A stretch of 64,000 nucleotides of DNA from a bacterium (GTDB lineage: Bacteria; SZUA-182; DTGQ01; JAFGSM01). Made by a program: the position numbers and the translations under genes. A model generated the notes under the pieces. That model was given only the letters and a program-made list of their open reading frames with translations, did no database searches and was not told the DNA's origin. Shown here one piece after another: positions 13,111-45,922 of the stretch (its first letter is position 1; each line of letters opens with the position of its first letter). Location: assembly GCA_049472335.1 (NCBI GenBank), contig JBLIRO010000021.1, positions 1,766-65,765 on the forward strand, read 5' to 3'.

Positions 13111-13908
13111 ATGAAACGTTTTAAAAAAAGGTATTTTTGGGGATTATTTGGTGCTATAGTTTTAATAGGGTTCTTATTCATTGTAAATTTTTGCTTTGTA
13201 CAAGAATTGACTATTATTCCTAAAGCAAATGCACAAGCATTTCAATATAATTGGGGCGGCGTTGGTACCGGAGGATCTCATGAATTAGCCGGTTATTTCC
13301 CAAGTGATTTAAAGGAAACCATAACTACTTGTAGCGGAGGATGTACAGAAACCGCCTCCACCTGTGCGTGGGACTGTGGCGCCACTTTCTCTCAATGCGG
13401 ATCAGGAAGCGGACAAAGATCCGGAGCCGGGCTATTGGGCGGAAGCTATACTTTCGGCATTTGTTCCACTTCCACAACTTGTGGCAACAGCTTATTTGGC
13501 AGTTGTATGAGCGGAAGCTATACTTTCGGAGTTTGCCTAAGGACTGAGATTCCCACATCGAATACCTGCAGCAGCGGCATCTTCTGTGGCGGAGGCGGCA
13601 ATATCACATTACTGACCTGCGGAAGCAGTCCATATAGCAGTTGTGGCATTGGTAGCTATACATACAGCACCTGCAATGTCGGTTGTGGTTATATAATCCC
13701 TACAACCAAGACCTGCAATTGTAGAAAGGAACCAAAATGGCAATGGGGTTCGGAATATACTAACAGTATTTGTCCTATAGCTACTGGTACAACTTGTGAT
13801 GGATATTGCGCATTACCGATTCCGGGAGTTATTTTATATGATTACACCGGAATTAACGATTATACCAACATGTCCAATTATACAGTTTCTACCCCACCCG
13901 CATTTTAA
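13111..13908 (+). CDS. secreted Cys/Gly/Ser/Thr-rich repeat protein (GSYTFGxC repeats), function unknown
   Basis: 265 aa. Strong RBS AAGGAGG. Signal/anchor peptide ending ANA-QAFQYNW. 20 Cys in the mature part. Repeated GSYTFGIC / GSYTFGVC / GSYTYSTC units with near-identical DNA at about 13441 and 13513. Confidence 0.7.
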   Translation: MKRFKKRYFWGLFGAIVLIGFLFIVNFCFVQELTIIPKANAQAFQYNWGGVGTGGSHELAGYFPSDLKETITTCSGGCTETASTCAWDCGATFSQCGSGSGQRSGAGLLGGSYTFGICSTSTTCGNSLFGSCMSGSYTFGVCLRTEIPTSNTCSSGIFCGGGGNITLLTCGSSPYSSCGIGSYTYSTCNVGCGYIIPTTKTCNCRKEPKWQWGSEYTNSICPIATGTTCDGYCALPIPGVILYDYTGINDYTNMSNYTVSTPPAF

Positions 13909-13967
13909 TATAGATGATAATAGCAATCACTAAAATCTTCTCAAAAATACCGGAATAATATTTCTGG

Positions 13968-14007
13968 GGGCCTTTGAAAGCTAATAGGCTTTTAAGGCCC
14001 TTTTATT
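13968..14007 (+). terminator. rho-independent terminator candidate
   Basis: GGGCCTT (13968-13974) pairs with AAGGCCC (13994-14000) and is followed by TTTTATT. The loop is long (19 nt). Confidence 0.45.
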
Positions 14008-14273
14008 ATTCCTAATCTTGATATATGAAGATATTCCTACCCGAGACTCTTTTTATTCTTTCAATAGAAGGGATATAGTAAAAATCACTATGCGGAATAT
14101 AGTAGTTTCCATTATTGTCAAGTGTAATTTTAAGAGTTATTATTATAACAAATAACATTTTTGTATTTTTTTATTCGATATCGGGATGCCAGAAACATTT
14201 GCAGCAACTTCTCAATATCCTGGTGGGATCTTGAGAAGCTTAATCACAACAAGGTAAGATTTTTATAAACGTA

Positions 14274-14309
14274 CCGAAGGGAAAAATCAAAATTTTTTAC
14301 GTCTATTAA
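14274..14309 (+). promoter_or_regulatory. conserved upstream element, copy 2 (CCGAAGGGAAAAATCAAAATTTTTTACGTCTATTAA)
   Basis: Shares the TTTTTTACGTCTATTAA core and the GAAGG box with 12912-12946. It lies 74 nt upstream of the ATG at 14383. Confidence 0.35.
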
Positions 14310-14382
14310 GACAGGCGAGGGAAATTAGGTATAGGGACTAACCGTATTTTAAAGCCTTAATAATAATAAATCCTGATGCGTC

Positions 14383-15996
14383 ATGTTAAAACTTATACCA
14401 AATAAGCTTTTATGTTCTAAATGGGCCCATCTGTCTATTATTATATCTTTAATATTTTTATTGACATCTTCATTTACTTCGGCTGTTGATAATCAAATCC
14501 AATATCCAACAATAAATCTTCCTGGATTGTTTAAACCATCGGGCTTTCCATATCAACCGCCCTTTTTTTCTTATACAAATTATACCTTCGATCCCATACG
14601 ATCCTCATTAAATTCTTCTTTTAAATTGGAAAGCAATTATTCCATACCCTTTTCACAGTTCGGCATTAGTAATTATTCTTTTCAGTTTCTACCAAACCGG
14701 ACTTCTGGTAGTATTTCCTCCTCTCTTTTTGAGAGTCTCACTTTCTCATATAAAAATCCCCTTAATTTATTTAACTACCAGCCTTCGTTTACACAATTTC
14801 CAAATAACACAAATTTCAATATACCTTATGTAGGATCATTAATGCCCAATATGGGATATATGCCACATGTTTTTCCCAGTGATAAATTTATATATAGTTA
14901 TTATCCTGGAGATATTTATGGTCAAAAGACACCTGCCCATCTGACGACGAGCCTTCCGCAAAAGCCTGGTGAAATCATCGGTACCATAGGAATAATAACT
15001 GATATACATTATTCCGACAAAGATTCCACTGACAGGCGTTCTCAATTTTCATTAAGTGGTCCCCGTTTTTACAGTGAAGCCGCTAACGACCTGGCCGATT
15101 TTGTCGACAAGATGAATTCTATGGGAGTTGATGCAATAATTGAGCTGGGCGATTTCATAGATATCCATTCAGGAAATTCCGCAGAAGAAGGCAACACCAA
15201 CACGCATGACGACGGGGCCCACGGAGAGGCAATATTATTCGAGGCAGAATCTATTTACTCAAAACTTGTCATGCCGTATTATCACGTTATTGGCAACTGG
15301 GATATGTATGATTATGATTTTGCCACTGCTGATGAATGGTTCCGCCACATTATCAATGGCACTCCCGAAACCATCGTAAGCCTTGGGGGAAAACTTTATA
15401 CCGATGCAATTGGTAATCCTGTAAGCAGGTATTACGCATTTAAATTTGGTGAAGTTCTGGGTATAGCGTTGGATTCTTCCGGCACTAATGCCTTAAGAGA
15501 CAACTATTTGATGCATACCACAGGGATAAACGGAACGGGTTTTGTCCCCGGGAAGCAGCTTGACTGGCTTGAAGATGTGCTGGCGGACAATAGAGATGGC
15601 GAAAACATGCCCGTTATAGTATTTATTCATCCTTTTTTATATCCGGAATTCATGGGGAATAATTATTATATGTGCAGAAATTACCTGGATGTTCGAGATA
15701 TTCTTGAAGCCGATGATAATGTGCTGGCTGTATTTAACGGTCATCATCATCCCGGTGCGGATGGTTGGTGGGAGGATACTCAAGATAATCCCGATTCTAA
15801 TGTTTATCATGCAGCCACCGGTGTATTTGGCGAAAAACACAAGGGTATCAAATACTATAATCTGAGAGGATCAATTATCGGATGGGGTTCCGATTCCTCA
15901 GGCCCAATTGAAGAGCCTTCAAATGTTTATTATGTTTTGACAGTGGAGAGAGGAGAGTCGATTTCCATTAAGGTTGAGACTTTTAGTACCAATTAA
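14383..15996 (+). CDS. secreted calcineurin-like metallophosphoesterase with N-terminal aromatic/Pro/Asn-rich low-complexity region
   Basis: 537 aa. Signal peptide. Low-complexity region at about residues 35-175. Phosphoesterase motifs DIHYSD, GDFID, GNWD, FIHP and GHHH. Confidence 0.8.
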   Translation: MLKLIPNKLLCSKWAHLSIIISLIFLLTSSFTSAVDNQIQYPTINLPGLFKPSGFPYQPPFFSYTNYTFDPIRSSLNSSFKLESNYSIPFSQFGISNYSFQFLPNRTSGSISSSLFESLTFSYKNPLNLFNYQPSFTQFPNNTNFNIPYVGSLMPNMGYMPHVFPSDKFIYSYYPGDIYGQKTPAHLTTSLPQKPGEIIGTIGIITDIHYSDKDSTDRRSQFSLSGPRFYSEAANDLADFVDKMNSMGVDAIIELGDFIDIHSGNSAEEGNTNTHDDGAHGEAILFEAESIYSKLVMPYYHVIGNWDMYDYDFATADEWFRHIINGTPETIVSLGGKLYTDAIGNPVSRYYAFKFGEVLGIALDSSGTNALRDNYLMHTTGINGTGFVPGKQLDWLEDVLADNRDGENMPVIVFIHPFLYPEFMGNNYYMCRNYLDVRDILEADDNVLAVFNGHHHPGADGWWEDTQDNPDSNVYHAATGVFGEKHKGIKYYNLRGSIIGWGSDSSGPIEEPSNVYYVLTVERGESISIKVETFSTN

Positions 15997-16235
15997 ATTC
16001 TACATAATCAATTTCTAATAATCAATTGCAAAAAGTGTTTGTATTCTACTAATATCTCTTCTTGCCTAACAATAAGATATTATCTTGTATTTTATTGATA
16101 TACTTTAAAATCAAAGAAAAATCTTTATGTTCTATTAGTTGTTTTTTAACAAAATCATATCTCATTAATTTCAAATCAATAACTACAAAATCCCTAACAC
16201 CTTTATTTTCATAATCTTATAACCTCTCTTAATTT

Positions 16236-16251
16236 TGGTATGTCCTTTGCT
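16236..16251 (+). promoter_or_regulatory. sigma54-type -24/-12 promoter candidate (TGGTATG-tcct-TTGCT)
   Basis: GG at 16237-16238 and GC at 16249-16250, with the canonical spacing of TGGCACG-N4-TTGCW. About 270 nt upstream of the small-peptide ATG. rpoN is encoded in this window. Confidence 0.45.
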
Positions 16252-16721: not shown

Positions 16722-16732
16722 TACCTTACAGT

Positions 16733-16767: not shown

Positions 16768-16824
16768 TTCCCCTTTAGGAGCCAAAACAAAAGTAAAGGA
16801 TAAGAGAAAAGGAGATGGAAAAAG

Positions 16825-18705: not shown

Positions 18706-18709
18706 ATCC

Positions 18710-20841: not shown

Positions 20842-23800
20842 ATGAAGTCATTATTAAAAGGCTTAACAGTATTTCTTACCCTCCTAGTTTTGTCACCCAT
20901 ACTCAGCTCACCTGCCATAGCACAGTTAAATTTTTACTTCCCGGACTTTTGGCCGCCAGAATATTTACGAGACTTACAAACCTACTCGCGCCCAGCCACT
21001 ATCAAAAAAAGTGATATACTTGTTGATGACTTTGAGTATTCGGACAGCCCTTACAATCATGGGTGGATGGGATCTGATATTTATGGTGGCGGTTTTACCA
21101 AAATATCGATGGATTCGCAAATAAATAGTCTTGTACTTGATGCTTATAGGCCTCATTCCAATTTCTTAGTTTACACACCCTCTTCAATGCGAAAGATCTC
21201 GTATAACCTTTTTACACCCCTGAGCCTTAATAAACCTAATGGTGAGTCAGGCATAAGTATGGATACAAATCCGGTTTTAAGCCTTCTTTTCAGGTCCCTT
21301 CATGACAATGAGTCATGGGATCTATTTTTACTCGATGTTATTGGAGAAGATACAAGCGGTGAAAGGACTATTACCGTCACAATCAAGATAGGGCCTATGG
21401 AACAGCCTTGCGGAACTTCCGTAGGATCTTTAAAGGGCAATGAATGCATATTTGACATAAGAGCTGCTGTTACCGGTTTTAATCCTTCAGGGCAATTACA
21501 GGTCACTGCTACTATCAATCGGAGTATGCTCGATGGTTCATGGCATACCGTGCATGTCGATTTGGTTAAAGCAGTAAAGACCGCCGTAGCTGTATTCAAT
21601 GAGATAGATGATTCCGATAAATCTGATTGGCATATAGCCAGGGCGAACTCAATTGAAATAAGAGGCTGGAAATTTCGTTTGGACAATATCATATTCAGGT
21701 CTAAGACAGGCGGGAAGTTTCTCGAGTCTCCCGATCTTTTCGAAATGGGCCCTCTGTATAACCAAATATTTGAGCCTTACAGGTTTCTGTTTATTGCGGA
21801 TTCTCAGGGGGAAGGGATATTGGTCCATGACAAGAACAGCCAGGCAAATAAAATTAAACAGATCACAGACCTTATGCTCAATCCTGACAATTTCCTTCTT
21901 GTGGAAGACCCTAACGATCCCAATGATCCTGTCGTGAGATACTGGACAGACGAAATGGGCGCGGACCCCAATCTCTTCGGAGAAAATGATCCTAACCTGG
22001 CGCAGAAATTTGACAGGAATTCGTTCGTTGTGGACCTTAACCTGGCTATCTTTGCTGATTCTAACCTTAGGATGGAGCCGGATGGTCCCGGAAGCCTGGC
22101 TGAAACTATCATTTCATCAGGCATTCTGGACTGGCATTCCACAGTTGGCGGATACGGCGCCTACGGCACTCAGTATTACTTGCTGCAACCACTCCCGATC
22201 TATCCTTATGACGGTATGCCGACTTTTCTGCCGGCCCGCTATTCTCTCATAGACGTCATAGGGAAATACGGCAAGCCCTATTACTCCCCTGAACACGTCC
22301 GTATGCTCGAAGGAGCTCTTTGGAATTCGGGAATCACTGCGTGGCCTAACATTGCGGCCCTTGATTATACACCGCAGTATTTTGAAGACATGATCGTGAC
22401 CATTGAGGTTACTAACGGGATAGATAGCGACGTGAGGACCTTCCCTATCAGTGTGACCAACTATCCGGTTGAGAATTATCCGCCAGTGCTCCAGTTGGAT
22501 GCAGTGTTCCGGTTGAATATCGGGGAGTTAGTCTTCTATGTGGATGATATTAATGAATATGCATTTAATGTAATCGATCCTGATTGTTTCATCTTCTCAT
22601 TGTCATCTGATCCGCCAACTACACATGTACCAGGAATCCCTATGCATGAAGATTACAGGACCGATATGGACGGGCTCAGTTGGGGTATTGACACGATAAC
22701 AATTAACGGACAACTATCTTCATTGTTTACTACTTATCATTATATAGGTCCCTGGTATGACTGTAGTATCTTTAGTTCATTGATGGATGATTTTGACTAC
22801 TGTTATTTCCAGGATACCGGTTTGATTCAGTTTACACCACGGTCTGAAAAAACTCTAGGAATTGAAATCATTGCCAGTGATTTGAGGGGGGGCAATTCCA
22901 CCATTGAATTGAAAATCAATTGCGTTTCCTGGTCAGACACCGATGAAGACGGTATTCAAGATTCACTGGACAACTGTCCCTTTTTAGCAAACCAATGTCA
23001 ATTTGATTCGGATGAAGATGGTATAGGTGATGAATGTGATATCTGCCCTGAAGCCTTCGACCCTAATCAGGAGGATCTGGACAGCGATGGAACCGGTGAT
23101 TTATGTGATAACTGTCCCGGCACTCCCAATACGGATCAGTTGGATAATGACAAGGATAATATAGGTAACGCATGCGATACATGTCCGGGTGATATCAATA
23201 ATGACGGGGACGGGGATGGCTGGTGCGGCGACATAGACAACTGTCCGAATATCTGGAATATGGATCAGGAGGATAAGGATGGAGACGGTATAGGCAATCC
23301 CTGCGATAATTGCCCTGACTACTCCAATCCTGATCAAGGGGATTCAGACGGAGATGGAATCGGTGACGCATGTGATAACTGTCCGCATTTTCCGGATTCT
23401 AACCTGCAGGATACTGATGGGGACGGCATCGGGGATGTGTGCGACAACTGCCCTAATGCAGTCAATCCCGGTCAGGTTGACCAGGACAATGATGATATGG
23501 GCGATGAATGCGATGTATGTCCCAATGATTTTACAAACGATGAAGACGGGGATAATGTCTGCGGCATGACAGACAATTGCCCCGGACTTTCCAATCCTGA
23601 TCAAAAAGATAAGGACAATGACGGAATCGGGGATGTGTGTGATAACTGCCCTAATGGTCTAAATCCTGACCAAACGGACAAAGACTGGGACGGCATAGGA
23701 AATGTATGCGACAATTGCGTGTATGCATCCAATCCTGAACAGATTGACAAGGATGGAGATGGTATAGGTGATCCGTGTGATAATTGTCCGGATATATCCA

Positions 23801-24354
23801 ATCCTTTTCAAGACGACACGGACAAGGACGGACTGGGGAATGTATGTGATAAATGCCCATCCATATCCGATTATAAACAAAAAGATATGGATGGTGACGG
23901 AATCGGGGATATGTGCGATAACTGCCCGGAGGCTTTTAATCCTGACCAGGCGGACTCAGATGGAGACAATATAGGTGATGCCTGTGATACTCCATCTACT
24001 CAACCTGAAAAAAAGCAAAGCAAGACAATCCTGCCCTATTATCAATTCCGGCAGCAATTTCCATGGTTTTCAAGTTTTATGCCTTATAATCTTTTAGGAT
24101 ATCGCTATGGCGCCATCTATAGCTCATTATTTGATAATACCCAAAACCCGTTTTTGATAAATACCTTCCAGCAGGGAGATTATGCACAGAATAATTTCTT
24201 ATATCCCATAAATACGACAAATTACGGATCTTCTTTTTTACCGAACCTTTTGACCCATTCAGCCCCTTGGGCTTGGCATGGTTCTATATATTACTATGAC
24301 CAAAGCGGTCTCCCTCTGGGTTTTAATCAGTATTTACCGAAGCCATTACAGTAA
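20842..24354 (+). CDS. large secreted protein with 16 thrombospondin type-3 (Ca-binding) repeats and an aromatic-rich C-terminal tail
   Basis: 1170 aa. Signal peptide ending AIA-QLNFYF. About 670 aa of unrecognised N-terminal region. A DxDxDGxGDxCDNCP repeat array. The C-terminal ~108 aa are Y/F/N/P-rich. Confidence 0.85.
22936..23988 (+). repeat. array of 16 coding thrombospondin type-3-like repeats
   Basis: Counted by hand from [15 protein letters not shown] to [12 protein letters not shown]. The array generates many spurious alternative-frame and antisense ORFs in the track. Confidence 0.9.
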
Positions 24355-24587: not shown

Positions 24588-26330
24588 ATGATTACAAGGA
24601 CGCAAGTAAAGGATCTACGTTACTATCTTCTAATCTTTTTATTATCAACCATAATACTTTTCTCACTTCTTATCATTAGGATAAACTTCAGCCATGCATA
24701 TTTTTCCCCTTATCCAGCATTCTTTCAGCCCCCATGGCAACAGATACCATATTTTAGCCCTGTGTTTCCTGGAAGCGTTATTCCACCCCAATACCCATAC
24801 TCAAACTTATACCCAAGATTTGCTCGATCCAATACAAATTATCCTGCATCCTTCTATCCCAATTTCGGAGGCTTCGGGTTTTTGCCTTACAGGTCCTATA
24901 ATAGTGCTTATAGCTTACCCCTGACTTCTCAATTACCCTTTTATACACCTGCAAATCCGGCCTCAATGTATACCCTTTTCAACAATCCCGGCCTTGCCAG
25001 CGCCTATTTACGCCCGGATCCTCAATGGAGGATAGGCAAAGAGGTAACCCCTTCACCACCGCCAACTCCCGGCATGGGAACCGGTATAGAAACAGGTCAA
25101 TTAAGGATCGGGGCCACAGCCAGTCAAAGACGTGGCACTAACAGTTCGATCGTTCCTTCATATGTTAACCGCCAGTTGATTGTTATGTTCCGTCCTGAAG
25201 TCCCGCCACAGGAAAGAATGGCAGTGCTTGGCAAGCATAACTGCACGGAAATAAGAACAAGCGCCTATGGAGGATTTACACTCATTGCGCTCTCATCCTT
25301 TCAGAGTGTGCGTGACACCGCGGAGCAATTTTCAATGGAACCATCCGTGCTTTATGCGGAGCCTAATTATTACAGACGTGCCCATCTTCTCCCAAACGAT
25401 CCCTATTACGTTTATCAATGGCATTTTCCCTGGCCGCACCTGGCCACCCCCCTGTCTTGGGACATAAACACAGGAGCAGGAGTGACTGTAGGGCTGCTCG
25501 ATTCCGGCGTTGCCTACCGCACTGCCGCGCCTTATGCACAGGCCCCGGACCTTGCAGGCACTTTGTTCGCTCCGGGCTGGGACTTTGTGAACGCGGACGC
25601 ATTTCCTGACGACGATTACGGGCATGGGACCCATATGTGCGGCTGTATCGCGCAAACCACAAACAACTTATTGGGCGTGGCAGGAGTGGCGTTTTCCTCC
25701 ACCATAATGCCTGTAAAGGTCATGGATAGTTTGGGAGATGCCACTATTGCGGACGAGGCTGACGGAATATATTTTGCAACTAATAATGGGGCAAGGGTTA
25801 TAAACATGAGCTTCGGAGGAGTCGGGACATCCGCCACAGAAGAAGCAGCTTTGGTATTCGCCTATAGCCAGGGGGTGACGCAACTGGGTTCATCCGGAAA
25901 TGCCGGATCAACCGTGCCGGAATATCCGGCAGCCTATCCGGAATGTATTTCCGTAGGAGCAGTTCAGTATGATCAAACCAGAGCCCCTTATTCAAATTAC
26001 GGGGTAGAGTTGGATCTCGTAGCCCCCGGAGGAAACATTACTCTGGACCAGAATTTTGATGGATACGGTGACGGAATTTTACAGCAAAGACATGATGGAG
26101 TAAACTTTACATCCTTCTATTATGAATTTATGGAAGGAACATCCCCTGCCTGCGCGCTGGCAGCGGGTGTGACCGCCCTTGTGATCAGCAAAAGCACGGC
26201 CGTGTTAACACCGCTTCAGGTTACAAATATCCTTCAGACCACCGCGACTGATCTGGGCGTAGTCGGCTGGGACCAGGAATACGGATGGGGAGAAGTCTAC
26301 GCCTACGGAGCCCTCCTCAATACCCCTTAA
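24588..26330 (+). CDS. secreted subtilisin-like serine peptidase (S8) with N-terminal low-complexity region and I9-like propeptide
   Basis: 580 aa. Catalytic triad motifs GLLDSGV (Asp), HGTHMCG (His) and GTSPACA (Ser). Low-complexity region YFSPYPAFFQPPWQQIPYFSPVFPG... at about residues 36-150. Confidence 0.9.
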   Translation: MITRTQVKDLRYYLLIFLLSTIILFSLLIIRINFSHAYFSPYPAFFQPPWQQIPYFSPVFPGSVIPPQYPYSNLYPRFARSNTNYPASFYPNFGGFGFLPYRSYNSAYSLPLTSQLPFYTPANPASMYTLFNNPGLASAYLRPDPQWRIGKEVTPSPPPTPGMGTGIETGQLRIGATASQRRGTNSSIVPSYVNRQLIVMFRPEVPPQERMAVLGKHNCTEIRTSAYGGFTLIALSSFQSVRDTAEQFSMEPSVLYAEPNYYRRAHLLPNDPYYVYQWHFPWPHLATPLSWDINTGAGVTVGLLDSGVAYRTAAPYAQAPDLAGTLFAPGWDFVNADAFPDDDYGHGTHMCGCIAQTTNNLLGVAGVAFSSTIMPVKVMDSLGDATIADEADGIYFATNNGARVINMSFGGVGTSATEEAALVFAYSQGVTQLGSSGNAGSTVPEYPAAYPECISVGAVQYDQTRAPYSNYGVELDLVAPGGNITLDQNFDGYGDGILQQRHDGVNFTSFYYEFMEGTSPACALAAGVTALVISKSTAVLTPLQVTNILQTTATDLGVVGWDQEYGWGEVYAYGALLNTP

Positions 26331-26403: not shown

Positions 26404-26452
26404 GGGACGGAGTTAGGATTAAACAGGAATGCCCCGTCCCTTTTTCTTTTTT
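26404..26452 (+). terminator. hairpin + T-run terminator candidate for the S8 gene (overlaps the 3' end of the convergent PEP-CTERM gene)
   Basis: GGGACGG (26404-26410) pairs with CCGTCCC (26434-26440) and is followed by TTTTTCTTTTTTC. The loop is long (23 nt). Confidence 0.4.
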
Positions 26453-27096
26453 CTTATGGCCGCAAGTCCTAAAACGCCGAATAGAAGAAAAACAAAACTT
26501 GATGGTTCAGGGACCGGCGCATAAAAATAATTAACTATCATTTCCCCATTAAACACACAATCAGAAAATTCATATTTTTTGCCCAAATCATCGTATATAA
26601 CACCAGGAAAAATATCTTTAAATACATTTGTAAGGGAAACGGAAGTATCATTTTCTTTTAAGGTAAAGAAAGACAGAATGTCGGGATTGGAATAAAATTC
26701 ACCTTGAATACCCCAGGTCCCCGCACCTGTCATTGCTTGCCCATCACCATTGAATGAACATAATCCATCTCCATCGCCAAAATCGAATTCCTGATGTATT
26801 CTTGACCCTAAGTTTATGTTTTCAACCTTTAAGATATATTGGTTTTCATAATAAAATGCCAATCCTTCAACATTATTACTATATGGAGGAGGATCGACAG
26901 ACTGATAATAAAACCAGCCATCTGAATATGTTTCCACAAGTACTTTCTCTAAGGTTCCAAGGGCTGAGTCAAACAAAAAATCCTGTGCGTCCAAAACATT
27001 ACCAATAGATAAATTTCTGCTAATATTGGCTGCTTTTGCCAAGGAGATAAAAGACGATAAACTAAAAATAATTAATAACATTAAAATCTTTCTCAT
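26419..27096 (-). CDS. PEP-CTERM-sorted secreted protein
   Basis: 225 aa. Signal peptide. The C-terminus VPEPSSFVFLLFGVLGLAAIRKKKKGRG is the PEP motif + TM helix + basic cluster of exosortase substrates. Confidence 0.75.
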   Translation of the reverse strand: MRKILMLLIIFSLSSFISLAKAANISRNLSIGNVLDAQDFLFDSALGTLEKVLVETYSDGWFYYQSVDPPPYSNNVEGLAFYYENQYILKVENINLGSRIHQEFDFGDGDGLCSFNGDGQAMTGAGTWGIQGEFYSNPDILSFFTLKENDTSVSLTNVFKDIFPGVIYDDLGKKYEFSDCVFNGEMIVNYFYAPVPEPSSFVFLLFGVLGLAAIRKKKKGRGIPV

Positions 27097-37319: not shown

Positions 37320-37931
37320 ATGATATCAAATAAGAAATTGAGAAATGTTTTATTGATTCTTATTATATCCCTGGCCCTTGGGCTTATCTTTTCACCAATG
37401 GCCTTATGTCAATATTGGACGGCATTACCGCCATATAATTTCCTCTGGCCATTATGGTCACCAGCCTTGTCTCCGGTTAATCCTGTTACCGGGCTACCAA
37501 CTCCCATAGTCAGCGACCTTTATCCGAGCACCGTACTTCCCGCCCAGCCGGGTTTGGTATGGAATCCGGTTTTGAGTTATCCATATTTTCTTTACAATTC
37601 ACCTGTAGGGATGCAGTATTATGATGTCATTTACGGAATAAATACCTGGCCGCCCAGTTATGTATGGAATCCTGTAACAGGTGCACCCGTTCCAGTCGGT
37701 TTACCGGCGGGGTATGGTTTTCTGCCTGCTACAGACCCTCTCTGGATACAGCAAAATCTGCCGGTTGCAAATCTGGCCTATCTGGCAGAATACCCAAATT
37801 TGGCCCTGGCCGCTTACAATATAGTCCTTCCTCCAAATCTGACAGGTTTAAATCCATGGCTGGCTTCTCTAATATATCCGACACCAGCCTTTTCCTCACT
37901 TCTCACAGTGGCTGATATTTTAGGATACTGA
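37320..37931 (+). CDS. small secreted Pro/Trp/Tyr-rich protein, 'WPLWSP' family paralog 1
   Basis: 203 aa. RBS AAGGAGGTG. Signal peptide ending ALC-QYW. 48 of the first 73 mature residues are identical to the 45407 product in an ungapped hand alignment. Confidence 0.7.
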   Translation: MISNKKLRNVLLILIISLALGLIFSPMALCQYWTALPPYNFLWPLWSPALSPVNPVTGLPTPIVSDLYPSTVLPAQPGLVWNPVLSYPYFLYNSPVGMQYYDVIYGINTWPPSYVWNPVTGAPVPVGLPAGYGFLPATDPLWIQQNLPVANLAYLAEYPNLALAAYNIVLPPNLTGLNPWLASLIYPTPAFSSLLTVADILGY

Positions 37932-37954
37932 TTTTTGGGTATTTCAGGCTAAAA

Positions 37955-38245: not shown

Positions 38246-40372
38246 ATGAAACAAAAAGTGAAATGCAATGTAATTGAAACAACTATTATTATCATGATCA
38301 CATGTATACTCTTATGTTTGTCCCGTCCAATCAAGGCCCAATATAGCCCTTTCTCTTATCTTTCACCTGCCCTGGGGAATCCGGGCCTGTTTCAAAGCCC
38401 TTCATTTTTGACCGGTTTCCCTATTACAGGTTATGCGCCCGGTTTTTCCGGGGCAAACATGGGCTCTTATTACGGATACAATCCCTACAATCCATACGGC
38501 AATTTATATGGAGCACCCGGTTCCTATTATCCATATTATCCTTCTTATACCTCCTTCCCCGCGCCCCCTCCCCTCCCTGTAGGTAATATAGAGACCGTCA
38601 GGGCCATGGAGGCAAAGGGGATATACATCTATTATATATTTGAGGAGGCATATTCCGATGGCGTAACGATACCAAGTCCCGAAATAACACTACAGATTGC
38701 CGATGTCAGCGATCCTGACGACCCGGATATAATCAAAAGCATCTCACTTGATTATCCCGTATCCGATATCTTTCTCCACGGGGACTATCTGTACTGGATT
38801 TCAGACACTGGCCTGGAAGAACTTGGTTATAATCTGAATGATGATGAATACATATTGGGGGTTTTTGACATATCTGATCCAGATTCCCCCACAGAGATGG
38901 ACACCCTGAAGCTGACATTTTCCTCTCAGGGCGCTCCCGTATTCTCCTTTAATGAGAACCGTCTTTATATCCTGTATCAAGAGCAGGAAGAGGACTGGGA
39001 TGATGAAATCCATAATCTGATTACCATCGATATCTCCGATCCGGGAGATCTTACAAAGCTATCTACCGGGGAGATAGAATTGGACGGCTCAATAATACAC
39101 GACATGACTGTCAGGGACAACCTTGCAATCCTCTCTAAGGGCTATATCATGGATATATCCGATCCAAAACATCCATACCTTGTCTCCGAAGTGGAAGATA
39201 ACGGAAGTCACCTCGGACGTCATGCGGTATACGGGAACTATCTGCTCCTCACCGCAGAGGAAGAAGGTTTGTGGATAGTCGATATCGAAGACCCATCCCA
39301 GCCCGAGTTTATAACGAAAATAGAGTTGGCATGGCCCAAGGATATTATTATCAAGGATCAGCTTGCATATATATCCGATTACTGCAAGGGGCTCAATGTG
39401 GTGGACCTTACTGATCCGGAAGATCCCGAACTGATCCACGGATACAGGCTCCCTTCACACAAGATGTACCGCAGCACATCTAACAGCACTGAAGGCTGGC
39501 TAAACGATATGGATATGGGAGAAGGGCTTGCCCTTACCTTATCCTATTCAAATATACAGATATGGGATATATCAGAGAAAGACGATGTTCAGATGGTTGA
39601 GAGGATCGGCTCCTCTCATGAACAAGAGGATCTTACAAAATCGATAATCCCTGGGAAACTGGTTTTGCTTCTTTCACATGATGCAATAGATTTGCTGTCC
39701 ATCGGCCAGGACGGAGGTATTGCCACTTTCGGTATTGATTCACTTGATGAATTAAACGAGAAATACAATATATCCAAAATCACAAAAGAAACATCATCAT
39801 GGGAAATCCCTGCAATAATGTCTGACTATGATAATTATTCAAAAAGGACCTTTTCCATAGAATTCCCAGGATCCGTAAATATGTATGATATTTGGGATGA
39901 CTATATGGACAATCCTTATTGTCTTATTGCAGAGTTTCTCTATACACCCGATCCTTATTCGAATGGAATTGTTGTAGGTTATGGGGGCGGCTATTATGGC
40001 TTACCCTTTCCGGGAGGATACGGCCTGGGAGGGATCTATGGCCCAGGGGGGTATGGCATGGGATTTGGGGCTTTCAATCCCTATGGTTATACAGGTATCC
40101 CATATCAAGGCACCAATCTTCTGCTAGGCCCCTTTGGTTTATCCGGAACAGGATATTCACCATACGGCCTGACTAATCCTTTTCAGTATGGCACAGGTAT
40201 GCCCGGCATTATTAGTTCAATCCCCTGGAATCCTATATCATCATTATTTCCGGGTGGGAACTGGCAATTTCCCAACCAGTCATATTGGCCCGGTTCCCTA
40301 TTTTCAGGCACTAATATTTATAATCCAATATACCCGGGAGGAAATTATTCCATGTACTATCCGTTTATATAA
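38246..40372 (+). CDS. secreted LVIVD-repeat beta-propeller protein flanked by N- and C-terminal Tyr/Gly/Pro-rich low-complexity regions
   Basis: 708 aa. Signal peptide ending IKA-QYSPF. LVIVD-type repeats (ILGVFDISDPDSP, LITIDISDPGD, GYIMDISDPKHP, LWIVDIEDPSQP, LNVVDLTDPEDP). The C-terminal ~135 aa are GY/PY-rich. Confidence 0.8.
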   Translation: MKQKVKCNVIETTIIIMITCILLCLSRPIKAQYSPFSYLSPALGNPGLFQSPSFLTGFPITGYAPGFSGANMGSYYGYNPYNPYGNLYGAPGSYYPYYPSYTSFPAPPPLPVGNIETVRAMEAKGIYIYYIFEEAYSDGVTIPSPEITLQIADVSDPDDPDIIKSISLDYPVSDIFLHGDYLYWISDTGLEELGYNLNDDEYILGVFDISDPDSPTEMDTLKLTFSSQGAPVFSFNENRLYILYQEQEEDWDDEIHNLITIDISDPGDLTKLSTGEIELDGSIIHDMTVRDNLAILSKGYIMDISDPKHPYLVSEVEDNGSHLGRHAVYGNYLLLTAEEEGLWIVDIEDPSQPEFITKIELAWPKDIIIKDQLAYISDYCKGLNVVDLTDPEDPELIHGYRLPSHKMYRSTSNSTEGWLNDMDMGEGLALTLSYSNIQIWDISEKDDVQMVERIGSSHEQEDLTKSIIPGKLVLLLSHDAIDLLSIGQDGGIATFGIDSLDELNEKYNISKITKETSSWEIPAIMSDYDNYSKRTFSIEFPGSVNMYDIWDDYMDNPYCLIAEFLYTPDPYSNGIVVGYGGGYYGLPFPGGYGLGGIYGPGGYGMGFGAFNPYGYTGIPYQGTNLLLGPFGLSGTGYSPYGLTNPFQYGTGMPGIISSIPWNPISSLFPGGNWQFPNQSYWPGSLFSGTNIYNPIYPGGNYSMYYPFI

Positions 40373-40604: not shown

Positions 40605-42689
40605 ATGATACAATCATGGATCTTCTATCTACAAAGGAGCATGAGAATCCGCAACAGGGATTTCCATGTGAATAACAATAGATTAATAGCTTTTTTTATT
40701 ATCATCAACATAACGATATTAATCAATCCTATAAATGTTAATGCTCAATGGATGCCATTTACCGGGTTAAATTTTCCAGGAGCACTTACCCAATGGCCAT
40801 CTTACACCGGGTCTTTATTCAGCCCTGACTATTCTTTATTCAATTTCAATCCCGCATACGGGAATTCTTTTTACTCGCCATTTTATCCATTGTCCGGATC
40901 GTTTTCAGGAGGAATATATGGAGGGTTATATGGAGGATCATATGGGGGATTGTATGGGAGGAATTATAATCTCCTTTCTCCGGGTTTAATTCCCTCTTTT
41001 TTGTACACCAATCCTTATATAAGCCCTTCTTCTTCCAGTCCAACAAACTGGACGGCAAACGTGTTGCCCGGCAACAATAATTGGTGGCAGGGACCACCTT
41101 TATATTTCCCCCAGAATTCGTTATTTAATCCTATTTTACCGAGTATTATACCGGTTTCTCAGCCGAACACTTACTGTGATCCGGCTTCTGCACCAGGCAG
41201 GATGAAAGGGAACTGGAGCAGCAAGATGATGAAAGACGAAGATGGCAATGCATTATCAGGGGAACTGAGCGTTAGAAGCGGAGGTGACAGCGATACTATC
41301 AATATGCTGGATTCTTACCTTATACTGGGCGAAGGCTCCCTTAATGAATTTAAATATACCCGCACCAACGGCAAGGCACCCATATCATTTCAAGGGACCT
41401 TCTATTCAGGATATACAGCGAATTTTACCGGCACTGCCAACAATAAACTTTGCTGCCGGAATACCTACTGTGCTTTTGCCGGTGTTTTTGAGGTGGAAGG
41501 TAATTATGTGATCAAAGACAAACTTGGAGAAATCGCAGATAAAGGCACCTTTAAACTCAAAGGGCCTGTTAGCAGCTCCTCTACAAGTCATACACCGGTT
41601 GACGCCATCAAGGCACTGGGGAAGCCCGTTGAAGAAGGGAGAGAGATCCTTTCCCTGACTACCGGAGCAGACGGCCGCATCTATGGAGGAACGGATATCG
41701 GGTGTCTAAATGTAGGGCACATGTTCATCTATGATCCTGCCACAGAAGAGACCATCGATCTGGGCAACCCGGGTTATGAATGCAATGCCATGACCACAGG
41801 AAAGGATGGCTTGATCTATCTTGGCGGAGGCACAAGGTCTTCGGGTGACCATGATTGTAAGTCAATAGGTTATGCCAACTTTGCCATCTATGACCCGGAC
41901 AGGCCCTGGAATCCCGGCCAGGGATCAAATGCCAATCCCCGGGACCTGGGACAGGCCGTGAATTTCAGCGGAGAAGTTGAGGGCTATCCCATAGTGGTAC
42001 ACGATCTGGCCACTGCCCCCAATGGAAAGATATATGGCTGTACAGGTTACAGAGACGGACAATCGGGGGAATACTATGCCAACCTCTTTGTATATGATCC
42101 TCAAACGGATACCATAGAGAATCTGGGTCAGCCAATCTCGAACCAGAGCAGTATCACCAGGCTGGCAATAGCCCCGGACGGCATTATATATGGAGTAATT
42201 CTCGGCCCTCGCACTGGATACAGGCCCCCTCCGGGTAAGCTCTTTTCCTATGATCCGGCATCCGCATCCTTCACCATGATCAATACACCATCATCTATCG
42301 AGGGAGCCGGTGACCTTACCGTAGGAGCGGACGGTCTGTTATATCTGGCAGGGAATGAAAACAATACCACTATATTTACCTATGATCAGGTCTCAAAATC
42401 CTTTGATATTAAAGGCGGTCTTGGCGGAGGCGGCAGCGTCCTGAGGATGATCACTGCCGTGGATGGGATCATTTATATCGGTTGCGCGGTAAATGGTTAT
42501 TTTGTTCATTATGATCCTGAAAAGGCTTGGGATGACAAGCCATATAGTGATGCTAATGACAAACCAGGAGTAAATCCCAGGGTCTTTCATTGGACGGAAA
42601 AGGTAAATGCCTTGACTGAAGGTTTGGACGGGACTATCTATTTTGGCAATTTAAGCGGGCAGCTATTTTATTTCGAAGGAGAAGAATAA
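40605..42689 (+). CDS. secreted protein: N-terminal low-complexity region + middle domain + 7-bladed beta-propeller (DGxIYxG repeats)
   Basis: 694 aa. Signal peptide ending VNA-QWMPF. Low-complexity region to about residue 190. Seven repeats: ADGRIYGGT, KDGLIYLGG, PNGKIYGCT, PDGIIYGVI, ADGLLYLAG, VDGIIYIGC, LDGTIYFGN. Confidence 0.75.
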   Translation: MIQSWIFYLQRSMRIRNRDFHVNNNRLIAFFIIINITILINPINVNAQWMPFTGLNFPGALTQWPSYTGSLFSPDYSLFNFNPAYGNSFYSPFYPLSGSFSGGIYGGLYGGSYGGLYGRNYNLLSPGLIPSFLYTNPYISPSSSSPTNWTANVLPGNNNWWQGPPLYFPQNSLFNPILPSIIPVSQPNTYCDPASAPGRMKGNWSSKMMKDEDGNALSGELSVRSGGDSDTINMLDSYLILGEGSLNEFKYTRTNGKAPISFQGTFYSGYTANFTGTANNKLCCRNTYCAFAGVFEVEGNYVIKDKLGEIADKGTFKLKGPVSSSSTSHTPVDAIKALGKPVEEGREILSLTTGADGRIYGGTDIGCLNVGHMFIYDPATEETIDLGNPGYECNAMTTGKDGLIYLGGGTRSSGDHDCKSIGYANFAIYDPDRPWNPGQGSNANPRDLGQAVNFSGEVEGYPIVVHDLATAPNGKIYGCTGYRDGQSGEYYANLFVYDPQTDTIENLGQPISNQSSITRLAIAPDGIIYGVILGPRTGYRPPPGKLFSYDPASASFTMINTPSSIEGAGDLTVGADGLLYLAGNENNTTIFTYDQVSKSFDIKGGLGGGGSVLRMITAVDGIIYIGCAVNGYFVHYDPEKAWDDKPYSDANDKPGVNPRVFHWTEKVNALTEGLDGTIYFGNLSGQLFYFEGEE

Positions 42690-43327
42690 CCTTCTTCCTG
42701 GCCGAAGCTGCTCCAAGGTTAGGAATACGAAAATATCTGTGTTGACAATGTTGAAGCGTAACCAGGACAGTAATAATTTCGTCTTTTTTCGTGATTGTTA
42801 CAGATACGAGATAAAAAGACACGGAGGCAAGTTTTTCATATCTAATAAAAATTTCAAAGATATTTATTTAATGAAGCAGAGATTTTATAATTAATTATTT
42901 TAAAAGAAGATAAGACAAAAAGAATTGTAGAGTATTAAAAGGCAATTAGTTGCAAAAACAACTTTATAAAGGAGATTGTTTTATCGATATAATTAAAGAA
43001 TTATTATAAAAATTTAATCTGTTTATTCCATTCATTGTTAACAGGTGATGAAAAGAGAAAATAATCCTGCTTTCCATGTGCCTTGTTCCTTTTCCTATTA
43101 AATTAAATCGAGAATATTGAAAATACCATAATCATGATTTGGTATTTAAATATCTCCCTGCTACTTTTCGATTCTCTCTATCCCGAATACGTTAGTATTA
43201 AAAAAATTCATATACACCTGTTTTTATGGATTTCGATTTTTATAGAGTGCTTAAAGGTTTTGCATCTTGGTAAAATAGTAATACCCTGGTTTTTTAAAAT
43301 ACACATTACTTTTTCGATGCTCATGAG

Positions 43328-43350
43328 GTCAGGTCTTGAAATATTGATAC
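43328..43350 (+). promoter_or_regulatory. recurrent motif GTCAG-N3-TTGAAATAYTGAYA, copy 3
   Basis: GTCAGGTCTTGAAATATTGATAC, about 125 nt upstream of the ATG at 43476. Confidence 0.3.
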
Positions 43351-43475
43351 TGAGTTTAAAGAGAATTGAGAATGAATTTTGCTGTTATAATTTTGGGCTT
43401 GAACCTTTTCATGCTTAATATATATTTTAATGAGGCAAAAACATATTAAAATTAAATTATGAGGTGAGGTGAATC

Positions 43476-45260
43476 ATGCCGGGTAAAAATACTTATAAAA
43501 CGTCTTTTGCTTTTATGTTTTGTTTTTTTGCTTTTTCTCTCTTTTTTCTTATACCTACACTTCAATGCCAATGGTATTCATATCCACCACCTATGAACAA
43601 TCTAAATTTTAACGGGTTTCCAGGGAATTCTCCATGGGCTTTTAGTAACTATCCTCCGGCTTATGGCTCCTCCCCTGTCTTACGAAATTTCTCTCCCATC
43701 CCTGGTTATTCCGGATTTTCTATAAATTCCGATCCTTACGGAAATCCATGGATGCCGTATTTTCCTCCGACTTCAGGATCAAAAAATTTGGCCACAGCCA
43801 GGTTTTCCTTTGTCCATTTAGCTGTAGATGGGGACTATATCTATGCGCTATTCACAGAAGCAAGAGGCCGGAACAGGAGTGCACTTGTCATTTTTGAGGC
43901 TTCCGGCTCGGATGATTATGAATATCTCTCCCATATCACTCTTTATGAGCCTGGCTATTTAATAGATGCGAATCCAGCGCCCATGGAAATCATTATCAAA
44001 GATGATCTTGCTGTAATCGGCGGTGATGACCAGGGCATGATTTACCTGGTGGATATCTCCGAAAAGGATGACCCGGAGCTTATCAACAAGCTCATCCTGG
44101 GCAACAGGACGGCGGATGATAGTGCTGCTGACAGGGTGACCGGTCTGGCAATTGAAGATGATGTGCTTTTTGTGAGTGTCCCTTTTTTTGTGGAAAATGA
44201 CAGTAGAATCTACGCCGTGGATATTTCCAATCCGGAGGATACGGATGAGGATGATGACCTGCTTGATTCCTTCACCGTAGATGACTATGACGTCCACGGC
44301 ATGGTATCTTCTCAGGATTACCTCTATGTCGTCGGCAGAGACCGTGGTTACCCTGACGGAGAGAACGAAGGCGGGGCCACAATTCTCATTATGGATGTCT
44401 CAGACCCGGAGCATCTATCTTTGGAGGAAATCTTCGATGACCTGGATGATTCGTCGTTGGGAGAACCGGATGATTTAAGTGTAGAGATTGCAGGTGACTA
44501 TCTTTTTGTAACATGCGGTGATTTTGAAGGCTCCTCTTCAGAGTCTAAATTAAGGATAATTGACATAAGTGACCCCGAAGACCCGGATCTGATATCTTCT
44601 TCCAAAAAAATGACCGGCACGCAAATATTCGGAAACAGATACATATCCGTTAAGGATAATTATGCCTATGTATTAGCATCCGATACCAGCGACAAGGAAT
44701 CCGGAATCTATGTCTATGACATATCCGATCCGGAGGACCCTGATTTAGTTGAAACTAGAAATATTAGTGACGGCAGCGGATATGACCTCCATCTCGTCGA
44801 TGACAGGCTTTTTGTCCACATTATCAATCAAGGGATTATAAAACTGATTGACATATCGGATCCAAGGGATCTGTCAATAGAAGGGACCGTGGACCTTGCC
44901 GGGATACTGGAAGAGGCAGAGGAATTCGATGATTGGGGATACACCGGGTATGTAGTTCCTCCTTATCTTTATGGGGGTTATCCGCCATATGGATATTCTT
45001 ATACTCCACCTCCTCTTTATACACCATCCCTACCCATTGGTTATAACACACCATACGGAACATCCAGGGTCGGTTTGGGAAATGTCCCTAACTACTACGG
45101 ATATGCACAACCATTTTATGGCGGCAATCTCAACTACGCTTCAAGATTTGGCTTTAACTATGGGCAAATACCCTATGGTGGATATCCTAATTATGGCCCT
45201 GTGCCTGGGTATAGTTATGGTTTATCAGCACCTTATTTTGGCAGTTGGCGGCAATTCTGA
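43476..45260 (+). CDS. secreted LVIVD-repeat beta-propeller protein with N- and C-terminal low-complexity regions (paralog-like to 38246)
   Basis: 594 aa. Signal peptide ending LQC-QWYSY. Repeats MIYLVDISEKDDP, RIYAVDISNPED, ILIMDVSDPEH, LRIIDISDPEDP, IYVYDISDPEDP and IKLIDISDPRD. The C-terminal ~108 aa are PY/GY-rich. Confidence 0.8.
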   Translation: MPGKNTYKTSFAFMFCFFAFSLFFLIPTLQCQWYSYPPPMNNLNFNGFPGNSPWAFSNYPPAYGSSPVLRNFSPIPGYSGFSINSDPYGNPWMPYFPPTSGSKNLATARFSFVHLAVDGDYIYALFTEARGRNRSALVIFEASGSDDYEYLSHITLYEPGYLIDANPAPMEIIIKDDLAVIGGDDQGMIYLVDISEKDDPELINKLILGNRTADDSAADRVTGLAIEDDVLFVSVPFFVENDSRIYAVDISNPEDTDEDDDLLDSFTVDDYDVHGMVSSQDYLYVVGRDRGYPDGENEGGATILIMDVSDPEHLSLEEIFDDLDDSSLGEPDDLSVEIAGDYLFVTCGDFEGSSSESKLRIIDISDPEDPDLISSSKKMTGTQIFGNRYISVKDNYAYVLASDTSDKESGIYVYDISDPEDPDLVETRNISDGSGYDLHLVDDRLFVHIINQGIIKLIDISDPRDLSIEGTVDLAGILEEAEEFDDWGYTGYVVPPYLYGGYPPYGYSYTPPPLYTPSLPIGYNTPYGTSRVGLGNVPNYYGYAQPFYGGNLNYASRFGFNYGQIPYGGYPNYGPVPGYSYGLSAPYFGSWRQF

Positions 45261-45406
45261 ATACAACCGATCAGACAATTTTTATGACAAGCTTTAATGG
45301 AAAAAAACTTTATAAATAGGATTAAAGAATAAAAAAATATTGTAACATCTTAGTTGATTAAAAAGTAAATGTTTTTAATTTATCATTAAAAATAAAGGAG
45401 GGAATC

Positions 45407-45922
45407 ATGTCAAAAAAAAGAATAATCTTTATCTGTCTCATTATCTCCATTATCTCATTGATTTTGGCTCCCTCAGCTCAATCCCAAAATTGGGCAGCCA
45501 TACCTCCTTATAATATCTTGTGGCCATTGTGGTCACCCATCTTATCACCTGTTAATACAACTACACAGCTCCCAACACCGATTGTTTCAAACTTGAATCG
45601 TTTTACCCTGCTTCCATACCAACCAGCTATCGCTTGGGATCCATATATGCCTTATCCCTGGTTTCTTTACAATAGTCCCTTTGGCTTAGTATATTATGAT
45701 GTATTACAGGATTTTATTTCTATGTGGCCTCCACTTCATCTAATCAATCCGTTTACGTTTGACCCCCTCCCCATTACACTTCCATCTAATTATTCTGCTT
45801 TTCCGCCGGTCTCTAGTGTTTTTCTTTCAGAATATGTCCCAATTGCAAACGAAGCATATACTGATCAATACTTCCCTAATGCATTCTTGTTAACTGCTAT
45901 TCAACTCGTTGCCCCATTTTAG
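45407..45922 (+). CDS. small secreted Pro/Trp/Tyr-rich protein, 'WPLWSP' family paralog 2
   Basis: 171 aa. RBS AAGGAGGG. Signal peptide ending AQS-QNW. The conserved core is IPPYNILWPLWSPILSPVN..LPTPIVS...FLYNSPFG.VYYDV. Confidence 0.7.
   Translation: MSKKRIIFICLIISIISLILAPSAQSQNWAAIPPYNILWPLWSPILSPVNTTTQLPTPIVSNLNRFTLLPYQPAIAWDPYMPYPWFLYNSPFGLVYYDVLQDFISMWPPLHLINPFTFDPLPITLPSNYSAFPPVSSVFLSEYVPIANEAYTDQYFPNAFLLTAIQLVAPF

Follow-up and report, generated by a model that had tools for sequence, protein, structure and literature searches.

The window analyzed here is a 64,000-nucleotide (nt) stretch of bacterial DNA (GenBank assembly GCA_049472335.1, contig JBLIRO010000021.1, positions 1,766 to 65,765 of the forward strand) in which six large exported proteins with unrelated globular domains carry aromatic-rich, nearly uncharged regions of low complexity (LC). 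The LC composition defines a real class that is restricted to exported proteins and does not reflect a proteome-wide bias, and the regions are coded by composition, not by sequence. Selection, retention in orthologues, and lineage specificity are evidence that they are functional. As to what they do, we favor, tentatively and at somewhat less than an even chance, the view that they are cohesive tethers that would keep exported proteins at the cell envelope, embedded in a layer or matrix of protein. Two small secreted proteins encoded in the same region do not carry such a tag and are predicted to form a folded, lineage-restricted, and previously undescribed protein family.

RESULTS

LC segments on exported proteins

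LC segments were sought in the 43 open reading frames (ORFs) of the window that encode at least 120 residues. A segment was defined by 40-residue windows of protein sequence with a content of Tyr, Phe, and Trp of at least 15%, of Asp, Glu, Lys, and Arg of at most 5%, and of Tyr, Phe, Trp, Pro, Gly, Asn, Ser, and Gln of at least 60%. Eight ORFs, named here by their first coordinate, contained such segments (14383, 20842, 24588, 37320, 38246, 40605, 43476, and 45407), and all eight encode signal-peptide-like N termini; by this composition criterion, no segment was found in the remaining 35 ORFs. All the proteins named in a preliminary description of this DNA are encoded on the plus strand between 13.1 and 45.9 kb, and every peptide and coordinate quoted there was found in place. 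The LC regions are indeed attached, as had been claimed, to unrelated globular domains, namely, an S8 protease, a metallophosphoesterase-like enzyme, TSP3 repeats, LVIVD propellers, and a Kelch-like propeller:

14383..15996 (+), exported metallophosphoesterase-like protein; LC at residues 35-176 (nt 14485-14910), directly after the signal peptide
20842..24354 (+), exported TSP3-repeat protein (Pfam TSP_3, 9e-41); C-terminal LC tail at residues 1060-1170 (nt 24019-24351)
24588..26330 (+), exported S8 subtilase (Peptidase_S8, 3e-52; Fervidolysin_NPro, 7e-8); N-terminal LC at residues 37-150 (nt 24696-25037)
38246..40372 (+), exported LVIVD beta-propeller protein (Pfam LVIVD, 1e-13); N-terminal LC at residues 32-112 (nt 38339-38581) and C-terminal Gly/Tyr LC tail at residues 570-708 (nt 39953-40369)
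40605..42689 (+), exported Kelch-like propeller protein (weak Kelch match); N-terminal LC at residues 47-192 (nt 40743-41180), including a GGxY repeat (nt 40908-40968)
43476..45260 (+), second exported LVIVD propeller protein, 25% identical to 38246; N-terminal LC at residues 31-102 (nt 43566-43781) and C-terminal LC at residues 487-594 (nt 44934-45257)

Protein 14383 showed weak NCBIfam phosphodiesterase matches at residues 336-466, with DxH, GDxxD, GNxD, and GHHH motifs visible, and its LC region had no Pfam match. As for 20842, its C-terminal tail was upheld as a carrier region, whereas the N-terminal piece that had been listed with it, which follows the Ala of the cleavage site (nt 20923-20964), is only about 14 residues long and contains Asp or Glu. 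The best NCBIfam model for this protein was the MYXO-CTERM cohesion protein MtsC, with a score below the cutoff of the model; an orthologue from a related genome (L014 12388-14862; loci of related genomes bear L numbers here) keeps the N-terminal motif and has a different C terminus. In the subtilase 24588, the LC region is followed by a fervidolysin-type prodomain (residues 190-260) and then by the catalytic domain (residues 296-568). The LC position varies among subtilases: it is N terminal in 24588, upstream of the catalytic domain in L057, C terminal in the homologue L008 8106-10088, and at both ends in L010 11862-13871. The two LVIVD proteins, 38246 and 43476, scored 26.4 and 21.7 bits, respectively, against the choice-of-anchor B model (TIGR04312), for which the cutoff is 100, and these scores point to related propellers and not to membership. 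Their LVIVD cores contain 26 to 30% Asp, Glu, Lys, and Arg and "DISDPEDPD"-type repeats, in sharp contrast to the uncharged ends.

The preliminary description had also counted the ends of a Cys-rich protein among the carriers, an inclusion that we find doubtful:

13111..13908 (+), Cys-rich repeat secreted protein; doubtful member, with the mature N terminus ANA-QAFQYNW (cleavage at the hyphen) only

This protein falls outside the LC composition as defined above, has in common with the others the Ala-Gln-aromatic N terminus alone, and gave no Pfam or NCBIfam match.

The segments contained 21 to 28% aromatic residues, 15 to 37% Pro plus Gly (Pro alone, 9 to 21%), and 0 to 8% charged residues, compared with 9 to 12% aromatic and 13 to 30% charged residues in the globular parts of the same proteins. 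The local sequence entropy was 3.0 to 3.5 bits in the segments versus 3.5 to 3.7 bits in the globular parts. A single short DNA tandem array lies within the segments (nt 40908-40968; 12 bp, 4.9 copies), in agreement with the earlier remark that they are not strictly repetitive. The DNA stretches encoding them have a pyrimidine-rich skew.

Related genomes were covered by scanning GTDB species genomes with the alignment of the small protein family described below, which gave 78 loci (1.2 Mb) from about 12 related metagenome-assembled genomes (MAGs), with 956 ORFs by crude calling. Signal peptides were assigned with a hydrophobicity heuristic of our own and not with SignalP. In these loci and the window taken together, with the small family excluded, LC segments were present in 56 of 219 signal-peptide proteins, in 5 of 90 proteins with multiple transmembrane helices, and in 4 of 526 proteins with neither a signal peptide nor transmembrane helices. 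The enrichment of exported over cytoplasmic proteins, which the preliminary description had proposed as a check, amounts to an odds ratio of 45 (Fisher p = 1e-27). In addition, none of 120 RecA proteins contained a segment. The preliminary description had stated that a general proteome bias, assignment to a known domain family, or a lack of enrichment among secreted proteins would speak against it; all three were looked for, and none was found.

The LC composition pooled over the lineage was 15% Gly, 14% Tyr, 12% Ser, 10.5% Pro, 8.6% Leu, and 6.7% Phe, with Asp, Glu, Lys, and Arg together at 3%. Of the 78 segments of the lineage, 35 were located directly after the signal peptide, 23 were internal, and 14 were C terminal, while 6 constituted the whole mature protein. 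Stand-alone proteins of the relatives, consisting of a signal peptide and low-complexity, Gly/Tyr-rich sequence only, are encoded at L057 1442-2347, L057 2416-3207, L079 10601-11155, and L054 10677-11327, and a Pfam search with the Gly/Tyr-repeat proteins of the relatives gave no match. At L057 1442-6147, two signal-peptide and Gly/Tyr-repeat proteins are followed by a protein with TPR, DUF3857, and transglutaminase-like domains, which may be a modification or assembly factor.

Shared composition without shared sequence

We compared the segments pairwise by the Smith-Waterman algorithm and expressed the scores as z values against 100 shuffles. The six large proteins carry eight LC segments, and the z values among these lay between -1.1 and 3.3, no better than for shuffled copies. 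The regions had been described as one and the same module; they turned out to have no homologous domain, conserved motif, or fixed position in common. Across 75 LC segments of the lineage there was a mild dipeptide grammar, with YG, GL, PY, PF, LY, and YP enriched.

Searches of Pfam and NCBIfam with whole proteins and with isolated segments, up to E = 1, gave no match in the aromatic-rich parts, which agrees with the earlier statement that no named sorting domain can be recognized there. The sorting domain of the type IX secretion system (T9SS) (Por_Secre_tail, PF18962) was absent from the LC proteins and from their isolated tails, and the same search found it in outgroup LVIVD homologues. The PEP-CTERM profile (PF07589) had no match on the LC proteins, and a regular-expression scan for this tag matched 1 of the 61 LC proteins of the lineage. 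SLH, CW_binding_1, LysM, or similar wall-binding repeats did not match the isolated segments up to E = 1, nor did the Curlin_rpt or Fap profiles match the LC proteins. The likeness to SLH, PEP-CTERM, and the T9SS C-terminal domain (CTD) drawn in the preliminary description thus applies to the presumed function and not to the nature of the regions, as those elements are positional, motif bearing, or folded and the LC regions are none of these.

Constraint on the LC regions and their position in homologues

Between the window and the closest relative (locus L006), the LC regions were 77 to 88% identical and the cores 92 to 94% identical, and the ratio of nonsynonymous to synonymous substitution rates (dN/dS) was 0.19 to 0.34 in the LC regions versus 0.09 to 0.13 in the cores. 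For 38246, the ratio was 0.19 to 0.20 in the LC regions versus 0.13 in the core; for 40605, in which the LC region was 77% and the core 94% identical to the L006 orthologue, it was 0.34 versus 0.09. These values indicate that the LC regions are under purifying selection, though a relaxed one.

Orthologues of the LVIVD protein 38246 in the protein database, with identities down to 31%, all kept a long LC region (14 of 14), and the full-length ones kept it at both ends. In their alignment the composition is conserved, indels are many, and conserved positions are few. The LC regions are probably disordered, judging by their low entropy, their high content of Pro plus Gly, and the persistence of the composition through indel-rich orthologue alignments. 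Among 106 distant LVIVD homologues from outside the lineage, a segment was found in 8, and in each of these it was short and internal. In Bacteroidota, Calditrichota, and several candidate phyla, distant LVIVD proteins of comparable length have Por_Secre_tail, the T9SS sorting domain, or FlgD_ig at the C-terminal end, and one distant homologue bears the name of a GC-type dockerin protein. By domain order, the LC tail at the C terminus thus occupies the place of the surface anchor of other lineages.

Gln at the mature N terminus

The seven mature N termini beginning with Gln that had been listed in the preliminary description were all present as quoted. Cleavage sites assigned by the heuristic gave the pair [AGSC]Q at the end of the signal peptide in 74% of the small family, 64% of the LC proteins, and 18% of the other exported proteins, the last value being close to chance. 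In the alignment of the small family, Cys at position -1 alternates with Ala or Ser, which indicates signal peptidase I sites and not lipoboxes.

The occurrence of an aromatic residue within a few positions of Gln had been put forward as a further special feature. It did not survive comparison with the composition: an aromatic residue at +2 to +6 was observed in 70% of the proteins, and about 72% are expected from an aromatic content of 22%. A special "Gln plus aromatic" N-terminal motif was therefore rejected; the aromatic residues follow from composition, and Gln alone is enriched.

A family of small Trp/Pro-rich proteins

The two small proteins with LC-like composition behaved differently from the regions on the large proteins:

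37320..37931 (+), small secreted Trp/Pro-rich protein; 236 homologues; invariant W33, P37, P38, Y39, L42-W46, and others
45407..45922 (+), second member of the small family, 46% identical to 37320; profile E = 4e-68

They formed the sole significant pair among the compared segments (Smith-Waterman z = 33.7). AlphaFold2, run with 100 sequences, gave for 37320 a model with a predicted local distance difference test (pLDDT) score of 90.2 and a predicted TM score of 0.80, comprising short strands, long coil stretches, and a long helix. The two proteins had been regarded as instances of the same module as the LC regions; by this model they represent a conserved folded family instead. The alignment of the family contains many invariant Trp, Pro, Tyr, and Leu positions (consensus LPPYNTLWPLWSPALSP...), and dN/dS between 37320 and its L006 counterpart was 0.17. 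All 236 homologues of 37320 came from unclassified MAGs. There are 155 copies of the family in about 12 species genomes, with at least 10 in several genomes, and among 1.84 billion representatives only 102 clusters (50% identity) match it. Neither Foldseek with the model nor a profile search of the PDB sequences found anything in the PDB, and the predicted fold may be new.

Some small-family members of the relatives are fusion proteins that also contain PVPT-rich linkers and repeats of an unannotated "GTWxGxW" domain. This domain ("GTWxGxW...LxLxQ...") is about 110 residues long and is present in 1 to 6 copies, with PVPT-rich linkers in between; its fusion partners are the small family in some proteins and GY- or YPQYQT-repeat regions in others. 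A second conserved family of small secreted Tyr-rich proteins ("QVYPGNYDPTYL...INSITDPFYY...") is encoded directly upstream of the closest 37320 orthologues and is absent from the window. Neither the domain nor the second family had a Pfam match. In five of the related loci, a small-family or LC gene has as its immediate neighbor, on the same strand, a gene for an exported Sulfatase (PF00884) protein; four of these five proteins are fused to long TPR arrays, and all may be modification or assembly factors. The loci are as follows:

"GTWxGxW" domain: L068 9932-19513; L052 6672-7775; L059 12420-13496; L029 4316-5317 (-); L034 14984-16012 (-); L015 15733-16965 (-)
Second small family: L007 9339-9809; L008 41-562; L009 9337-9807; L010 3799-4284; L011 5077-5616; L012 9435-9896; L013 3769-4254; L014 9400-9885
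Exported Sulfatase proteins: L023 2054-4981; L051 10853-13831; L062 1616-3844; L082 17309-19525; L083 1799-3211

Host and neighboring genes

The window has a G+C content of about 40%. Its genes for LptC, LptA, a TonB-dependent receptor, an outer-membrane beta-barrel protein, and a canonical PEP-CTERM protein mark a two-membrane organism. RecA was at least 73% identical only to proteins of unclassified "bacterium" MAGs and about 70% identical to those of a mixture of phyla; these identities indicate that the host belongs to a deep lineage, and by the same comparison it is not a member of Bacteroidota. Samples in which the organism is present include DRR851362, DRR851354, and SRR29850981.

26419..27096 (-), canonical PEP-CTERM protein

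The presence of this protein implies that the genome has an exosortase-type sorting system, which the LC proteins do not use.

Clustering of the 956 ORFs from the 78 loci gave no universal candidate for a dedicated machinery gene near the LC genes. Two-component regulators predominated among the recurring neighbors (65 members in 36 loci), accompanied by some TPR proteins, ABC transporters, and subtilases. At two loci (L008 6425-7825 and L010 10321-11718), a lipoprotein-like TPR protein whose C-terminal half resembles a beta-barrel, ending in ...YRF or ...YDF, is encoded directly upstream of subtilases with C-terminal LC tails and could be an outer-membrane partner.

In the window, genes for a NapC/NirT-type multihaem cytochrome (33285-34355, -) and an 869-residue protein with the two-component "regulator propeller" repeat (34403-37012, -) lie directly upstream of the cluster of small-family and LVIVD genes, on the opposite strand. 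Downstream of the Cys-rich protein 13111, which has "GSYTFGxC"-type repeats, genes for a YcaO cyclodehydratase (Pfam, 4e-48, with YcaO_C as well) and an ABC exporter lie next to each other, in this order (16825-20527, +). The three could be a modification and export cluster of the type acting on ribosomally synthesized and posttranslationally modified peptides (RiPPs); no RiPP precursor peptide was identified at the YcaO/ABC cluster. A tRNA-Met (CAT) gene (6189-6265, +) is located inside an AT-rich interval of about 1.9 kb that contains no long ORF, and Rfam and ARAGORN searches over the window gave no match besides it.

DISCUSSION

Proposed cohesive tethers and other explanations

We propose, as the reading to which we give a nearly even chance, that the LC regions are composition-coded cohesive tethers. 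Sec export and cleavage by signal peptidase I would usually expose a Gln residue, likely cyclized to pyroglutamate. The terminal regions of the six large exported proteins, about 70 to 170 residues long, presumably disordered and nearly devoid of charge, with Tyr, Phe, Trp, Pro, Gly, Ser, and Asn in abundance, would then engage in aromatic, Pro, and Gly contacts with one another in a "sticker-spacer" manner and so keep the enzymes and binding domains within an envelope layer or matrix made of protein. This layer would be built by the proteins of the relatives that consist of a signal peptide and low-complexity sequence only, and the small family is probably a further component of it. On these premises, the LC regions would be the functional counterpart of the T9SS CTD, PEP-CTERM, or MYXO-CTERM anchor found on homologous domains in other phyla. 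We infer the disorder, self-association, surface location, and retention function of the regions; the T9SS sorting domain found at the position of the LC tail in distant LVIVD homologues and the LC-only proteins of the relatives lend indirect support to the idea of a retention tag or sticker. In a bolder version, LC regions with pyroglutamate caps would partition proteins into a cohesive extracellular gel or sheath, made of the LC-only proteins and a Trp/Pro scaffold of new fold, that replaces T9SS or exosortase sorting; this version we regard as doubtful, if still worth considering.

Several points weigh against cohesive tethers. No route was identified by which these proteins would cross the outer membrane of the organism, and they could stay periplasmic. 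In the subtilase 24588, the LC region lies upstream of the prodomain, and autoprocessing would remove it, unlike a permanent anchor. Pro-rich uncharged aromatic sequences could also bind polysaccharide or another surface. A single-sequence AlphaFold2 model of 38246 shows the LC regions as coil at a pLDDT of about 25, in a model so poor as a whole (mean pLDDT, 35.7) that it says little on disorder. Finally, the 78 loci were centred on small-family genes, so that the frequency of LC segments among their exported proteins, 26%, may exceed the genome-wide value; the cytoplasmic control is unaffected by this choice.

If the LC regions bound a nonprotein substrate, such as elemental sulfur, mineral or hydrophobic particles, or an exopolysaccharide or peptidoglycan (both by aromatic-sugar stacking), they could anchor enzymes there, much as the Gly/Tyr-rich envelope proteins of sulfur globules coat sulfur. 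An aromatic-rich and uncharged composition would suit such a role, and so would the origin of the related genomes, which come from Zodletone spring and the "CSMAG" sets, sites that we take from their names to be sulfidic or anoxic. The multihaem cytochrome of the window would also fit, and the Sulfatase-TPR proteins beside small-family or LC genes in five loci hint at polymer chemistry. Against this stand the observations that genes for polysaccharide synthesis or sulfur oxidation were not seen beside the LC genes of the window, that Pfam recognized no carbohydrate-binding module on the LC proteins, and that the LC-only proteins fit a protein matrix at least equally well; we consider substrate binding rather unlikely. 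A purely passive role, as flexible stalks, entropic bristles, or periplasm-crossing tethers with neither cohesive nor targeting function, is unlikely as well. It would account for the high content of Pro plus Gly, the frequent indels, the relaxed sequence constraint, and the location of 35 of the 78 segments directly after the signal peptide. However, the regions are terminal and do not lie between domains, so that a spacer would have nothing on its far side, and with 21 to 28% aromatic residues and essentially no charge they are unlike the usual Pro/Thr/Ser-rich or charged linkers. The lineage has separate PVPT-rich interdomain linkers, LC-only proteins exist, and the composition was kept in all 14 LVIVD orthologues, at both ends in the full-length ones.

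The strongly class-specific Gln at +1, the LC tail at the position of the T9SS CTD in LVIVD homologues, and the exported TPR proteins that recur beside LC genes, among them the one with a possible beta-barrel C terminus at L008 and L010, would all be in keeping with a role of the LC regions or of the Gln-aromatic N terminus as a true sorting signal for dedicated secretion or attachment machinery, comparable to the T9SS CTD or exosortase tags. Such a signal is improbable given that there is no conserved motif, length, or position, that only two-component regulators recur widely across the 78 loci, and that composition accounts for the aromatic residues that follow Gln. Functional amyloid or other beta-rich fibres, such as curli or Fap, have in their favor the export of the proteins, the uncharged composition rich in Gly, Asn, Gln, Ser, and Tyr, and the existence of some stand-alone repeat proteins in the relatives. 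Yet Pro at 9 to 21% of the segments disfavors cross-beta structure, no Curlin_rpt or other repeat family matched, the segments of the window lack imperfect repeats, and no exporter of the CsgG or FapF type was seen, which makes fibres of this kind very improbable. Least of all do we believe in an artefact of proteome or nucleotide composition or of miscalled frames. The G+C content of about 40% and the pyrimidine-rich skew of the LC-coding stretches could be cited for it, but segments were present in 0 of the 35 other proteins of the window and 4 of the 526 cytoplasmic ones, the LC frames are continuous with recognized domains, dN/dS is well below 1, and the LVIVD orthologues kept the LC regions in 14 of 14 cases; these results refute an artefact.

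Implications

The known systems of surface retention in bacteria use recognizable motifs or folded domains, and genome annotation relies on these to find surface proteins. If composition alone can code for retention, as the cohesive-tether reading would have it, profile-based annotation would miss an entire class of proteins of the surface and matrix, and cohesive low-complexity assemblies, which have been studied best inside eukaryotic cells, could organize a bacterial envelope. The gel version, if true, would be a bacterial extracellular counterpart of condensates or FG-type cohesive phases. Independently of these readings, the small Trp/Pro-rich proteins are well supported as a new family, one that marks an uncultured lineage with a largely uncharacterized secretome.

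Comparison with known systems

In Bacteroidetes, the Q-rule describes Gln at +1 of signal peptidase I substrates, which is cyclized to pyroglutamate (PMC5837995, PMC10653852) and in this form stabilizes extracytoplasmic proteins (PMC10653852). The present proteins resemble these substrates in having Gln directly after the signal peptide, in 64 to 74% of the LC and small-family class. They differ in that the Q-rule is described as specific to Bacteroidetes and as covering most signal peptidase I substrates (PMC5837995, PMC10653852), whereas our host is, by RecA, not a member of Bacteroidota and the enrichment concerns one class. By the heuristic cleavage sites, most signal peptidase I substrates here do not have Gln at +1, the share among the other exported proteins being 18%. 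A class-specific Gln at +1 extends a phenomenon so far described only for Bacteroidetes.

With the T9SS CTD (Por_Secre_tail), PEP-CTERM, MYXO-CTERM, and the GC-type dockerin, all of which follow the "choice-of-anchor" logic, the LC regions have in common that they occur as additions to a wide range of exported enzymes and binding domains that are unrelated to one another. Those anchors are folded domains or short tags composed of a motif, a transmembrane segment, and basic residues; they are located at the extreme C terminus and can be recognized by profiles. The LC regions, in contrast, have no motif, fold, or profile match and may be N terminal, C terminal, internal, or at both ends.

A literature search for a bacterial precedent of secreted Gly/Tyr low-complexity proteins returned eukaryotic systems only. 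Extracellular structural proteins of eukaryotes that are rich in Gly, Tyr, and Pro include the plant glycine-rich proteins, extensins, insect cuticle and chorion proteins, and the GGX regions of silk; cohesive aromatic low-complexity domains are found in FG-nucleoporins and FUS-like proteins. The likeness lies in a signal peptide followed by a Gly/Tyr/Pro/Ser-rich sequence of low charge, in coding of function by composition, and in cohesion by aromatic "stickers." On the other hand, many of the eukaryotic structural proteins need oxidative cross-linking of Tyr, which is unlikely in an anaerobic setting, and in the present lineage LC sequences occur on enzymes and propellers as well as in stand-alone form.

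The sulfur-globule envelope proteins SgpA, SgpB, and SgpC of purple sulfur bacteria are small, Sec-exported, Gly/Tyr-rich proteins that coat periplasmic sulfur. In these traits they resemble the stand-alone GY-repeat proteins of the relatives. They differ from the system described here in that no sulfur-oxidation context was seen in the window; they are small stand-alone proteins and are not known to occur as appendages on enzymes. Taken together, the LC regions fit no known sorting or anchoring family and are kin to low-complexity structural and retention sequences, and the small protein family is new.

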